Assembly: GCA_022340615.1 (NCBI GenBank)
Contig: JAJDNO010000030.1
Coordinates: 41,624 to 105,623 of the forward strand
Source of the DNA: Gallionella sp.
GTDB lineage: Bacteria > Pseudomonadota > Gammaproteobacteria > Burkholderiales > Gallionellaceae
Direction: 5' to 3'
Length of the DNA: 64,000 bases
Shown in pieces: positions 3,263 to 51,618 of the stretch. A program made the translations under genes and the position numbers. The notes beneath the pieces are model-generated. The model was not told where the DNA came from. It ran no database searches and saw only the letters and a program-made list of their open reading frames with translations. Positions within the stretch are counted from its first letter, which is position 1. The number at the start of each line of letters is the position of its first letter.

Positions 3263-3990
3263 GACATGCCTTGCTTTTCCTTCGGCGCGTTCAGGTTCTT
3301 TTCAAGTTCTTCTGCCGGCAGGTATCCCGGCGCCTGTATGCCATTGCCAAATATCAGGTTAGGCGTACCGTTGACATGGAGCTTCTGGCCCAATGCCATG
3401 ACTTTGTCGGTCTGGGTTTTGCAAACCGCATTCGCGGGCCTGATTTTCTTCAGCATCCAGTCTTTCCATGCCTTGACCGGATCGCTGGAGCAAAGCACGT
3501 TGCGCACGATTTCATGCGAGCCCGGAAATATCGGGTACAGGTACAGATACAGCGTGACATTGGTAACGCCGCTCAATTCCTTTTCCAGCCGTTTGCAATA
3601 TGGGCAATTCGGATCGGTGAATATGGCCAGCTTGCGCTTGCCGTTGCCCTTCACTTCTTTCACCGCAAGGTCAAGCGGCAATTTGTCGAAGTCGACCGCA
3701 AACAGCACGCGGCGCCTCGCCTCGCTCAGGTCGCGGCGGGTTTTTGCATCGATCACGCTGCCGTCGAAAATGTATTCGCCCTTTTCGTCGGTATACAGGA
3801 GCTGGTCTCCGATCACGACTTCATACAGCCCCGCATAGGGCGTCTTGACGATGTGTTCGATGTTGCCTATACCGGGAAATTTGCTTTGCAGGGACTGGCG
3901 AATCTCATTCACGCCGGCGTGGGCGGCGGACGACAGGATCAGCAGCACGGCGATCAGCGCGGACATGCCAGGAACAGATAATTTCTTCAT
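3259..3990 (-). CDS. dsbC: Thiol:disulfide interchange protein DsbC
   Basis: Signal peptide, FTDPNCPYCK, VNGTPN. Confidence 0.88.
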   Translation of the reverse strand: MKKLSVPGMSALIAVLLILSSAAHAGVNEIRQSLQSKFPGIGNIEHIVKTPYAGLYEVVIGDQLLYTDEKGEYIFDGSVIDAKTRRDLSEARRRVLFAVDFDKLPLDLAVKEVKGNGKRKLAIFTDPNCPYCKRLEKELSGVTNVTLYLYLYPIFPGSHEIVRNVLCSSDPVKAWKDWMLKKIRPANAVCKTQTDKVMALGQKLHVNGTPNLIFGNGIQAPGYLPAEELEKNLNAPKEKQGMS

Positions 3991-4024
3991 TGAGTATTCT
4001 CGATTTTATTTTGGTAGCGGCAGT

Positions 4025-5200
4025 TTAATGCAAGGCATGCTGCATCAGCATTTTTTTCAGCGGAGCGATGCGGTTGACTGAATCCAGCCCGAAATTGCGC
4101 GCGGATCGCAACACCGGAGCTTCGTTATTGAACAGATGTTTCAATCCGTAAGTCGTTGCCTGCATGGTATAGATATCTTCCTTGCGCTTTCGTTCGTAGC
4201 GGCGCAACAACATCGCGTCACCGCAGTCGTTTTGCGCGCCCCGCTCCAGAAGTATCTCCGCCAGCTGGCGCGCGTCGCGGAAGCCGGTATTCACTCCCTG
4301 CCCTGCCAGCGGGTGCATGTTGTGCGCGGCATCGCCGATCAGAGCGACGCGCGGCGCGCTGATATGCGGCAATACCAGCAGACGCAGTGGGAATGCGGCG
4401 GGCGGGGTGACCAGCTTCAGTTCGCCAAGGCTGTGCCTCGATGCGGCAGCGACTTGCCCGCACAGTTCAGGATGCGGCATTGCCAGCAGGCTGTCCGCCC
4501 GCTCCGGACTGACCGACCACACCATGGAAACCCGGTTGCCTGGCAGCGGCAGCAAGGCAAGGATACCGTCCGTCTGGAACCACTGGTATGCGATGCCGCG
4601 GTGGGGCAATTCGCATGAAAAGTTTGCCACCACCCCGTGTTGCCGGTAATCCAGCGGCGCCGCGCTGATACCCGCCTGCTTGCGCACCCATGAGTCCCTC
4701 CCATCGGCGCCGACAACCAGCTTTGCATCCACGGTGCGGCCATCTTCGAGTGTCAGCGTGGCGGAATCTGCGGCAAATTTCAGTGCGGCGCATCGCGCCG
4801 GGGCTAACAGGGTCAGATTCTCCTGCTGGGCTGCGACCTGCCACAGCGCATGGTGCAGGGCGCGGTTTTCAAGTATGCACGCCAGTTCGGCCACGCCCAT
4901 CTGATACGCGCTGAATTCCAGTTCAGCGCCGCTGTCGCCGAACACACGCATTGCTTCCACCGGCGCAATGCGGTCGGCATCCAGCAACGGCCAGGCGCCC
5001 GATCGTTCAAGGAAACCGCGGCTGCCCGGGCTGATCGCGTATATCCGGTTATCCCAGTCCGTTTCGCTGGCCGGCGAGATGTGCGGCATGAGCGAGGGCT
5101 GACTCTCCACGATCGCGAGCGATAGTCCGCTTTGCTTCAGCGCGGCAGCAAGACTGGCCCCGACCAGTCCCCCGCCTATGATAACGACGTCGAATTTCAT
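4025..5200 (-). CDS. UbiH/UbiF/VisC-family FAD-dependent ubiquinone biosynthesis hydroxylase
   Basis: DVVIIGGGLVG, VGADGRDSWVR, LIGDAAHNMHPLAGQGVNTG; start taken at MKFDVV. Confidence 0.88.
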   Translation of the reverse strand: MKFDVVIIGGGLVGASLAAALKQSGLSLAIVESQPSLMPHISPASETDWDNRIYAISPGSRGFLERSGAWPLLDADRIAPVEAMRVFGDSGAELEFSAYQMGVAELACILENRALHHALWQVAAQQENLTLLAPARCAALKFAADSATLTLEDGRTVDAKLVVGADGRDSWVRKQAGISAAPLDYRQHGVVANFSCELPHRGIAYQWFQTDGILALLPLPGNRVSMVWSVSPERADSLLAMPHPELCGQVAAASRHSLGELKLVTPPAAFPLRLLVLPHISAPRVALIGDAAHNMHPLAGQGVNTGFRDARQLAEILLERGAQNDCGDAMLLRRYERKRKEDIYTMQATTYGLKHLFNNEAPVLRSARNFGLDSVNRIAPLKKMLMQHALH

Positions 5201-49355: not shown

Positions 49356-49465
49356 GCGATATTGTGGCCTTAATGGAAGGGTTCAATGAAGCTGCATGGA
49401 ATCGTTCATGCACGCGCCTGGAATGAGTGAAACAGAAATCGACTTCGGCGCGAAAGAGCAGACTT

Positions 49466-49954
49466 TCAATGGCTCGCTGCTTTGACCTTTGCAAGTGATT
49501 CGTCGATCGCGTCCAGCAGGAAGGCATAATAAAAATCGACGGTCGTCAGTCCTTCCAGGAAGGTCAGCATTTGCCCGTTGCTGTCGAACAGCATCACATT
49601 GGGCACGCCACTGACATTGTGCTTGCCGGAGAATTTTCGGTAGGTCGTGGGCGTGCCGTCGAAATCGATGAGCTTGCCTTCGCTGCTGCTTTCGATCTGG
49701 CGCAGGATCACCTTGTTGTCAAATTCCGGGTCGCGCTGCATGGGTTGCAAAAAATCTTCCGAAACGGTTTTGCAGTACCCGCAGTCTTCATCCATAAACA
49801 GGACAAGGATGGGAACCCCCTTGCTTTTTGCATCCCTCGCTTCCACCCTGAGATCTTTCACGACCGGCAGGCCTGCTGCATAAGACATCGAGCCAAGGCC
49901 GAAGGCAGCAGCAAGGAGAAAAACGTTTGATACCTGTTTGAGCGCAGATTGCAT
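49466..49954 (-). CDS. Exported thioredoxin-fold protein (SoxW-like)
   Basis: Signal peptide, DCGYC CxxC, VSGVPNVMLFD cis-Pro loop. Confidence 0.78.
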   Translation of the reverse strand: MQSALKQVSNVFLLAAAFGLGSMSYAAGLPVVKDLRVEARDAKSKGVPILVLFMDEDCGYCKTVSEDFLQPMQRDPEFDNKVILRQIESSSEGKLIDFDGTPTTYRKFSGKHNVSGVPNVMLFDSNGQMLTFLEGLTTVDFYYAFLLDAIDESLAKVKAASH

Positions 49955-50189
49955 ATCTGTATGGCTGCCAATTCAAAGTGATTATGATGGAATTATATGA
50001 CCAATTCAGCGATTTGGGGCAGACCACAATTACGAATCCAAACCCCGGGTGGCGCCAATCGGCGCCGAAGGAAAATTATATAACTGGTAATATGGAAGCA
50101 GCGCCGAATAAATATCATCCGCATGTTATTGTTCCGGTAGCAGGATTAGCGCTTCTCTTTAACTTCACTTTCTAACCGAGGAGACTGAA

Positions 50190-50765
50190 ATGGAAACAGT
50201 CAAAAAAGCAGCAACCAGGAAACCAGCCGCCAAAAAGCCTGCAGCCAGAAAACCAGCCGCCGGAAAAACTGCGGCTGGAAAAACTGCCGCCGGAAAACCG
50301 GCCGCCAAAAAAACGGCGGCCAGGAAAACGGCAGTCAGGAAAACAGCAGTCAGGAAAACAGCAGACCATAAAGCGGGAGCCGATATCATGGCAGCGGCGA
50401 AGAAGGCGGTTGCCGAGATCATGGCCGTTGCCAGAAAGGCCGGTGCGGAGTTCAAGCCGGTAGCCCAGAAGGCAGGAGCCGAAATCATGTCTGCAACCCG
50501 AAAGGAAGCAGCCAAGATAAAACCGGCAGCAAAAAAGGCGGGAGCCACTATAAAACCGGCCGTCATGAATGCCGAGCGCCAGATTGAGGCTGCAGCAAAA
50601 AAGGCGGGTATCTCGCTGGAGGAAGCTGCCAAGAAGGCTGGGGCGCAAATAATGGCGGCGGCCAATAAAGCGGGAGAAAATATAAAGGCGGCAGCCCGGC
50701 ACACGATGCCCGAGAAGGCAAAGCCTTCAGCCAGCAAAGCGGCGGCCAGGAAAACCACCAAGTAA
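50190..50765 (+). CDS. Lys/Ala-rich repeat protein: H1-like 5-mers plus amphipathic 11-mers
   Basis: GAGGAG SD; ten xK(P/T)Ax pentapeptides followed by ten KAGAxIxxAAK-type 11-mers. Confidence 0.8.
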   Translation: METVKKAATRKPAAKKPAARKPAAGKTAAGKTAAGKPAAKKTAARKTAVRKTAVRKTADHKAGADIMAAAKKAVAEIMAVARKAGAEFKPVAQKAGAEIMSATRKEAAKIKPAAKKAGATIKPAVMNAERQIEAAAKKAGISLEEAAKKAGAQIMAAANKAGENIKAAARHTMPEKAKPSASKAAARKTTK

Positions 50766-50913
50766 TTACTCCACTAATGGCGTGGACATCGAAATCGTTT
50801 TCAGAAAGCTGGTCGGCTTAACCAGATTCAGCTTTCAGTAAACACCAGAGTCGGTATTTATTGCTCGCGTGGTTTTTCAGGAGAGATTGTGCCGGCTCAA
50901 GATCGGGCCAATG

Positions 50914-51618
50914 CTAATCAGGCAATCTGCTTCGCAGCACATCCCGGTCAAACCACCATTTGTCGCCGACGATGGCGTCCACCACCATTGCCATACGCGG
51001 CAGAAACACCTGCGGATCACGCAGCTCCAGCTTGTCCAGCCACAGGTTCATTTCATCCTGGTCCTGCACCTGGCCATGGCGCTTGGCCACCATTGCAATG
51101 AGGTTATCGACGAGGAAGCAAAGGCTCTCGTGCTTGTCGTCCCCGGCACGCAGGTCGACCACATAGCGCCCGGTGATCGCCGCCACTGCGGCACCGTCTG
51201 CGTCATCCGGCATTTCGTCTATCGCGTGGACCAGCATGGCCACCGTCAGTTCCGGATCGACCGGAAAGGTGATGGCAAGCCAGATGCCCATGCCCAGCAC
51301 CGCGATCGATTCTTCCTGGTCGGCCTGGTAAAGCACGTTGCACGCCTCTACTGCATCCTGCCAGGATTCCTGCTGCAAGGACAACAAAAATGCCTCGTGC
51401 GCAATATCCCACGCTTCTTTCCTGCGTTCCAGAGCAATAAGGATTTCGGCGATATCCATCTGCAGCCGGGCGCGCAGCACCGGGTCGGATTCCTCCAGAG
51501 CGGTTAGCTGCTGTATTTTTTCCGACAGCTGTATTTTCAGCCCGAGTTTCTCCTCGGCAGTAAGTCCGTCCTTCGCGGCCTTGACCAGCGAACCTACGTT
51601 GATAATTTCTTCGGTCAT
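50914..51618 (-). CDS. Conserved alpha-helical protein of unknown function (234 aa)
   Basis: Typical codon pattern, acidic helical sequence, WQDAVEAC, WLAITFP, WWFDRD; start at MTEEII. Confidence 0.75.
   Translation of the reverse strand: MTEEIINVGSLVKAAKDGLTAEEKLGLKIQLSEKIQQLTALEESDPVLRARLQMDIAEILIALERRKEAWDIAHEAFLLSLQQESWQDAVEACNVLYQADQEESIAVLGMGIWLAITFPVDPELTVAMLVHAIDEMPDDADGAAVAAITGRYVVDLRAGDDKHESLCFLVDNLIAMVAKRHGQVQDQDEMNLWLDKLELRDPQVFLPRMAMVVDAIVGDKWWFDRDVLRSRLPD

Follow-up and report, generated by a model that had tools for sequence, protein, structure and literature searches.

A Gallionella repeat protein with an exactly periodic 11-residue core between two basic tails

Results

Gene and upstream region

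The window analysed here is a stretch of 64,000 nucleotides from a contig (JAJDNO010000030.1) of a Gallionella sp. genome, itself 2.27 Mb in size and 99.5%-complete. It holds a gene for a small, very basic protein in which a long array of 11-residue repeats is enclosed by Lys/Ala-rich tails. The features of this gene, with the basis for each, are as follows.

50085..50093, + strand: promoter-like extended -10 element TGGTAATAT, about 97 nt 5' of the ATG (upstream alignment of 7 orthologous loci)
50094..50177, + strand: conserved 5' leader (82% mean column identity, 7 orthologous loci)
50178..50183, + strand: Shine-Dalgarno sequence GAGGAG, 6 nt 5' of the ATG (read directly; AGGAGA is invariant among orthologues)
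50190..50765, + strand: coding sequence, 191 aa, 19.4 kDa, pI 10.8, stop codon TAA (ORF translation; dN/dS 0.10-0.36)
50190..50366, + strand: basic N-terminal tail, residues 1-59, net charge +17 (repeats, charge, AlphaFold2)
50217-50366, + strand: ten [RKG]K[PT]A[AVD] pentapeptides, residues 10-59 (lag-5 self-identity)
50367..50696, + strand: core of ten 11-mers, residues 60-169, [KR]-K-A-G-A-[ED]-I-[MK]-[AP]-[AV]-A (periodicity, hydrophobic moment, AlphaFold2)
50538..50552, + strand: predicted hinge AGATI, residues 117-121, in repeat 6 between Pro112 and Pro123 (AlphaFold2 helix break)
50697..50762, + strand: basic C-terminal tail, residues 170-191, net charge +6 (charge, AlphaFold2)

Pairwise comparison of the 330-nt core among eight members of the family (28 comparisons, dS 0.3-1.2) gave dN/dS values of 0.10-0.36. 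Based on these values and on the GAGGAG motif 6 nt before the ATG, 50190-50765 is a real gene under selection, read in its correct frame. The long antisense ORFs that run across it are by-products of its Ala/Lys codon (GCN/AAR) composition.

Upstream of the gene, a TGnTA[AG]TAT block at window positions 50085-50093 has been kept across the 7 aligned orthologous loci, as has a leader of about 95 nt. A consensus promoter scan did not call this element and found no -35 match; from its conservation we infer that it is a promoter-like extended -10 element of the 11-mer gene. RNAalifold found only weak structure in the 5' leader, without covariation support. A structured leader RNA was therefore rejected: the sequence is kept among the loci, yet no covariation backs any fold.

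The longest apolar run in the 191-residue protein is 5 residues, so that both a signal peptide and a membrane segment are absent. From its sequence we propose that the protein is cytoplasmic.

Basic tails

The N-terminal tail contains, in order, the pentapeptides RKPAA, KKPAA, RKPAA, GKTAA, GKTAA, GKPAA, KKTAA, RKTAV, RKTAV and RKTAD. Self-identity over residues 10-59 reaches 0.78 at lag 5, compared with 0.0-0.2 at the other lags, and Tandem Repeats Finder (TRF) reported DNA periods of 15, 30 and 45 nt at 50204-50364, which confirms the ten exact 5-mers given in a preliminary description of this DNA. The same description had recognised the tail as KPAA-type, and this is borne out by the [RKG]K[PT]AA units; KPAA repeats have been shown to bind DNA, polyphosphate granules and RNA in AlgP and PhaF (PMC9239181, PMC12818456).

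Acidic residues are virtually absent from both tails. In the AlphaFold2 model the tails have pLDDT values of about 45-55, and the N-terminal tail is without secondary structure up to residue 48. Among family members the N-terminal tail consists of 19-59 residues of KKPAA-type units, the window protein having the longest, while the C-terminal tail consists of 5-81 residues with KKPA[AT] units. Because basic tails occur at both ends of the core, the family design is a sandwich and not simply a reversed PhaF; of the "reverse PhaF" order first suggested, the N-terminal placement of a KPAA-type tail stands, but the family also has a basic tail at the C-terminus.

The 11-mer core

The 11-residue periodicity of the core is far beyond chance, with self-identity of 0.48, 0.47 and 0.45 at lags of 11, 22 and 33 against 0.05-0.2 elsewhere. 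Ten uninterrupted 11-mers had been placed at residues 61-170; the ten gap-free repeats hold, and the register of 60-169 used here differs by a one-residue choice. TRF found no 33-nt DNA repeat under the core, indicating that the 11-mers are old and have diverged at the DNA level. More than 35 relatives carry the same repeats at the corresponding positions.

Summed over the 110 residues, the hydrophobic moment is greatest at 98 degrees (z 5.6-6.6 relative to shuffled sequences) and is unremarkable at 90, 120, 160 and 180 degrees. Its size is modest, about 0.28 for the whole block, with a range of 0.23-0.42 among 18-residue windows. On an 11/3 wheel, where the positions follow the order 1, 5, 9, 2, 6, 10, 3, 7, 11, 4, 8, the apolar arc is made of positions 10 (A/V), 3 (A), 7 (I), 11 (A), 4 (G) and 8 (M/K/E), and the opposite side carries Lys/Arg at positions 1 and 2 and Glu/Lys at position 6. 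The resulting Ala/Ile/Met stripe is weak: each 11-mer supplies one Ile, and overall hydrophobicity is very low. The helical-wheel and moment analyses thus agree with the amphipathic 3-11 periodicity proposed for these repeats at the outset.

Across nine species, stripe positions 3, 7, 8, 10 and 11 are the best conserved (0.90-0.98) and polar positions 1, 2 and 5 the least (0.72-0.78). Orthologous repeats share 78% identity, compared with 44% between repeats within one protein, so every repeat holds an identity of its own that has been maintained. The most basic repeats are 5 and 6, at and just before the predicted hinge, and repeats 7 and 8 (MNAERQIEAAA, KKAGISLEEAA), just past it, are acidic; both features are kept across species.

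Predicted structure and hinge

AlphaFold2 was run on the window protein with a 10-sequence alignment and on a 12-repeat homologue with a 20-sequence alignment. The first model has helices at residues 49-116 and 122-171 (pLDDT 78-89), and the second at residues 34-113 and 119-175, giving arms of 80 and 57 residues. Long helices are thus predicted in both proteins, as had been expected of the 11-mer block. The relative orientation of the two predicted helices is of low confidence (pTM 0.45-0.46).

The helix of the 12-repeat homologue breaks at the corresponding repeat (K[KR]AGAxIKP), in a stretch bounded by two prolines that are spaced 11 residues apart. Since the break falls there despite arms of 80 and 57 residues, the predicted hinge is set by sequence and not by symmetry. 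The hinge repeat is also exactly the one that is missing from 9-repeat members. A Foldseek comparison with the PDB returned nothing significant (best E 0.39), the matches being only generic helical hairpins and coiled coils.

Family and distribution

More than 35 relatives were found, all of them in Gallionella/Sideroxydans-type metagenome-assembled genomes (MAGs) or on metagenome contigs; every named record is assigned to Gallionella or Sideroxydans or comes from an unclassified beta-/gammaproteobacterial or Burkholderiales MAG. Orthologues occur in other species of the genus and family, with twenty further ones on JGI metagenome contigs. A profile built from the core only gave strong matches in 17 of 301 genomes of the same family, in three genera, and none in 400 other genomes of the order (167 genera). 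A HMMER search of 1.84 billion representatives yielded compositional or periodic look-alikes only, at E 5e-9 or weaker, and no true homologue. These look-alikes were KPAA tails, other 11-mer proteins (KKAGGDVxTTV, HKVGExVxxAA) and one ankyrin protein. An exact-sequence cluster look-up found none of five family members. Judging from these searches, the 11-mer family appears so far to be restricted to some Gallionella-type iron-oxidising bacteria of the Gallionellaceae.

Most members have a core of 10 repeats, while some have 12 and some 9; across the family core length is nearly fixed and tail length is free. Two divergent members, L026 (G101:C29) and L027 (G251:C79), carry KKAGAKIKPVA repeats that are much more basic and partly homogenised. 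The repeats of L027 are 22-mer units that hardly differ from one another, suggesting that homogenisation took place recently in some lineages.

Locus and neighbouring genes

In one genome (G014) a segment of 848 bp with the 11-mer gene and its promoter sits between a DUF1614 gene and a gene for a 234-residue protein. In a close relative (G005) the same two genes (93% and 91% nucleotide identity) lie 102 bp apart, an empty site. This comparison indicates that the 11-mer gene is a dispensable single-gene unit. Neighbours differ among the family loci (DUF1614, the unknown 234-residue protein, a CheY-like regulator, an RsgA-like GTPase, a lipoprotein). No operon partner is thus shared by the loci, and the varying neighbours give no functional hint. 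Plasmid and phage collections contained no match to the 11-mer gene, and a mobile-element origin was discarded on that account.

Several further observations concern these loci. The sites of the presence/absence polymorphism are window 49367-50918, L044 1399-1502 and L002 1288-2137. In the window, a thioredoxin-like gene (49466-49954, - strand) also lies between the DUF1614 and 234-residue genes. The convergent downstream gene for the 234-residue protein (50914-51618, - strand) has no Pfam match; the protein is found in 25 of 61 genomes of the genus at 56-91% identity and so belongs to an unnamed conserved family. About 1.5 kb upstream of a 12-repeat member (L034), an ORF for an IS110-like transposase of 337 aa lies at 3384-4397 on the - strand.

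Genome background

Neither PhaC_N (PF07167) nor class III (TIGR01836) PHA synthase was detected in the 99.5%-complete genome, which excludes a PhaF-style PHA tether; the phasin models gave no match either. The PHA-granule tether considered in the preliminary description is thereby rejected. PPK1 is present in the genome, so polyphosphate granules are possible.

The genome also encodes a DUF2934 protein with a basic tail and two classical histone H1-like proteins. One of the latter, of 204 aa (C47:7267-7891, - strand), has KKPAAKKAVAKKPVA units and ends in PAATWPFPTPGIGKPN; the other, of 82 aa (C65:8482-8746, + strand), has KKSAAKKPAAKKSVA units. Orthologues were also seen elsewhere in the genus (L008, L005). 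With two ordinary H1-like proteins encoded elsewhere in the genome, the 11-mer protein is an extra and not the cell's main H1-like protein.

Comparison with known families and periodic look-alikes

The window protein scored 39.5 bits against Pfam HC2 (PF07382; cut-off 40), the score coming from the tails, 37.3 bits against NCBIfam Hc2 (NF038052; cut-off 135) and 25.6 bits against the Burkholderiales H1-like equivalog (NF038053; cut-off 80). All 10 family members tested came near the cut-off for Pfam HC2 only. Lys/Ala-rich short repeats are confined to residues 1-59 and 170-191, and the core alone gave no HC2 hit at E up to 1; the protein taken as a whole is thus no member of the H1-like family, a possibility that had been raised when the repeats were first described.

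The phasin model PF05597 did not match the window protein or 10 members at E up to 1-10, and LEA_4 (PF02987) gave no hit for the core or family members even at E up to 1. Apolipoprotein models stayed below cut-off, the best of 10 members reaching E 0.02 for ApoLp-III and E 0.11 for Apolipoprotein; in the test with PF01442, PF07464 and PF02987 a divergent member scored 25 bits against a cut-off of 90.

A PDB profile search with the core returned DARPin and consensus ankyrin chains at whole-sequence E values down to 7e-11. The per-domain E values are only 0.02-0.1 and the core has no 33-residue super-period, so these matches, which arise through "KAGADV" every 33 residues, are a periodicity artefact. 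The core also lacks a TPLH/hairpin motif, no Pfam Ank model matched the window protein or 10 members, and an ankyrin/DARPin identity was rejected.

Three unrelated proteins of the representative library (P0006, P0018, P0038) carry long "KAG" 11-mer arrays (KKAGGDVxTTV; HKVGExVxxAA) with sub-threshold ApoLp-III, Apolipoprotein, CsmC and LEA_4 matches. Amphipathic 11-mer repeats may form a broader class, probably one that arose by convergence. Type I antifreeze and "Maxi" ice-binding helices are likewise Ala-rich 11-mers, with an i, i+4, i+8 face; an ice-binding helix of that type was rejected here because the protein is polycationic, has DNA-binding-type tails and lacks an export signal.

Discussion

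We tentatively favour the view that the 11-mer protein is an accessory polyanion-binding protein, probably nucleoid-associated, whose helical core self-associates and cross-links DNA. The two disordered Lys/Ala/Pro tails would bind DNA by charge, and possibly polyphosphate or RNA, in the manner of the KPAA tails of AlgP and PhaF. The 110-residue core would fold as two long amphipathic 3-11 helices with a Pro-flanked hinge between them, and its narrow conserved Ile/Ala/Met stripe would be buried through helix-helix packing, either as a hairpin in one chain or between chains. Such packing could turn the protein into a multivalent, rod-shaped cross-linker by which the bound polyanion is bridged or condensed. 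We infer the DNA binding, self-association and bridging from the features described above.

Three features make us prefer cross-linking: the individual identity maintained by every repeat, the fixed hinge, and the basic and acidic repeats on its two sides. Repeat-specific conservation of this kind would fit specific packing better than generic surface coating and, together with the conserved hinge, favours helix-helix packing at least as much as generic lipid binding. Also in its favour are the Foldseek matches to long helical hairpins and coiled coils, the constancy of the hinge site whatever the arm lengths, the free tail length beside a near-fixed core, the dispensability of the single gene and the presence of two classical H1-like proteins. 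Against it stand the weak stripe and low moment (about 0.28), which are also typical of lipid-surface-seeking helices such as Plin4 (PMC5889406), the low-confidence helix orientation and the variable neighbours.

A second possibility, about which we are doubtful, is a tether that does not involve PHA. With DNA or polyphosphate held by the tails and the core lying flat against a surface, either an anionic membrane or another inclusion, the protein would anchor the nucleoid or polyphosphate granules there, as Noc, PhaF, PhaM and AlgP do. It is retained because the physical chemistry of the stripe also suits surface-seeking helices. The 3-11 periodicity, the Lys/Arg residues flanking a small-residue apolar face, the Pro-punctuated helix segments as in apolipoproteins, the noise-level periodic similarity to the ApoLp-III and Apolipoprotein models and the presence of PPK1 are all consistent with it. 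HeliQuest-style D values range over 0.55-1.94 and lie for the most part within the band that HeliQuest treats as "possible lipid-binding". There are also precedents: Noc recruits DNA to the membrane through an amphipathic helix (PMC4331003), PHB granules of Ralstonia eutropha are linked to the nucleoid by PhaM (PMC3556143), the DNA-binding tails of AlgP are needed for polyphosphate granule spacing (PMC9239181), and the very long, weakly hydrophobic 11-mer helix of Plin4 can coat a lipid surface (PMC5889406). However, the genome has no PHA synthase, the apolipoprotein, phasin and LEA models are all far below cut-off, hydrophobicity is very low, and inclusion or membrane-remodelling genes are absent nearby. 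Generic surface binding, moreover, needs neither repeat-specific conservation nor a fixed hinge.

In its most developed form, which we consider unlikely, the family would correspond in bacteria to the giant 11-mer amphipathic helices, only weakly hydrophobic, that are found in perilipin 4, synuclein and apolipoproteins. With H1-like tails on both sides, it would reversibly fasten the nucleoid or condensates of polyphosphate to an interface, be it the anionic inner membrane or a different one, in some iron-oxidising Gallionellaceae. If that were true, it would be a new chromosome-to-surface tether, born by repeat amplification and gained or lost as a single gene.

It is improbable, in our judgement, that the protein is an RNA-binding post-transcriptional regulator in which the KPAA-type tails recognise transcripts and the core serves as an oligomerisation or scaffold module. 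The basis is purely analogy: KPAA repeats bind specific mRNAs and activate translation, as the PhaF tail of P. aeruginosa, homologous to that of AlgP, binds specific mRNAs (PMC12818456), and the architecture of a helical domain with a KPAA disordered region is shared. However, the tails vary 3-fold or more in length among close relatives, which fits non-specific binding better than transcript recognition, and the presence or absence of the gene is patchy.

We give still less credence to a LEA-like or hydrophilin-type stress protectant, with disordered Ala/Lys-rich 11-mers that become helical on drying or freezing and shield DNA or membranes. The 11-mer periodicity and the "KAG" signature resemble those of group 3 LEA repeats, LEA_4 is weakly matched by one distant 11-mer protein (P0038), and the relatives come from uncultured environmental genomes and metagenomes. 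Yet neither the core nor the family members match LEA_4 at E up to 1, the conserved Ile/Met stripe is untypical of LEA3, AlphaFold2 predicts stable helices, and Gly, at 5%, is under the usual hydrophilin criterion. A degenerate ankyrin-repeat protein, suggested by the DARPin profile matches and by the ankyrin protein (P0019) listed in the representative search, is rejected as practically inconceivable given the artefactual nature of those matches and the continuous long helices in the AlphaFold2 model.

AlgP, PhaF and PhaM are emerging as organisers of the bacterial cytoplasm: they place polyphosphate and PHA granules on the nucleoid, and one of the three also acts as an activator of translation. 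The 11-mer family would add a different design, in which a long amphipathic helix, exactly periodic and hinged at a fixed place, carries a tail at either end, in organisms that lack the PHA pathway and are uncultured or hard to grow. At 19 kDa, repetitive and truncatable by repeat, the protein could serve as a model for how tail and helix length relate to DNA bridging, condensates and membrane tethering. A composition-based "histone H1-like" annotation would hide its distinct central domain. Should it prove to be merely another non-specific nucleoid coat, its interest would be modest.

Among known systems, the chlamydial Hc2 and Burkholderiales H1-like proteins (PF07382, NF038052, NF038053) share the Lys/Ala-rich pentapeptide composition of the tails; they differ in that the window protein scores below their cut-offs and has a 110-residue core without an HC2 hit. 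The apolipoproteins (PF01442/PF07464), perilipin 4 and group 3 LEA proteins resemble the core in their uninterrupted 11-residue periodicity, in a straight 3-11 helix of more than 100 residues, and in a weakly hydrophobic small-residue face with proline-punctuated repeats. Unlike these eukaryotic 11-mer helices, the window protein is strongly cationic, bacterial and, as predicted, cytoplasmic, with H1-like tails and individually conserved repeats. Because the HMM similarity is at noise level only, the likeness is probably convergent.

PhaF (PF05597) and PhaM likewise join an amphipathic helical module to a KPAA/PAKKA-type nucleic-acid-binding tail, and in them the module and tail act as a granule-nucleoid tether. 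The 11-mer protein differs in the absence of a phasin match and of a PHA synthase, in having tails at both ends and in its exact 11-mer core. AlgP, with a 124-residue helical N-terminal domain and a KPAA tail, binds the polyanions DNA and polyphosphate granules (PMC9239181). The two have in common a predicted helical domain with a disordered KPAA-type region, a variable repeat number, a cytoplasmic location (predicted for the window protein) and a very basic character. Beyond the tails no sequence similarity to AlgP was detected, the HMMER search of the 1.84 billion representatives having given no non-repeat homologue of the core. AlgP has a non-repetitive N-terminal helical domain and one long C-terminal tail, whereas here a central 11-mer array is flanked by tails on both sides and the distribution is limited to Gallionellaceae. 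Taken together, these comparisons suggest that the 11-mer family is a lineage-restricted variant of the AlgP/PhaF/PhaM architecture, in which a helical module is combined with a polycationic disordered region.
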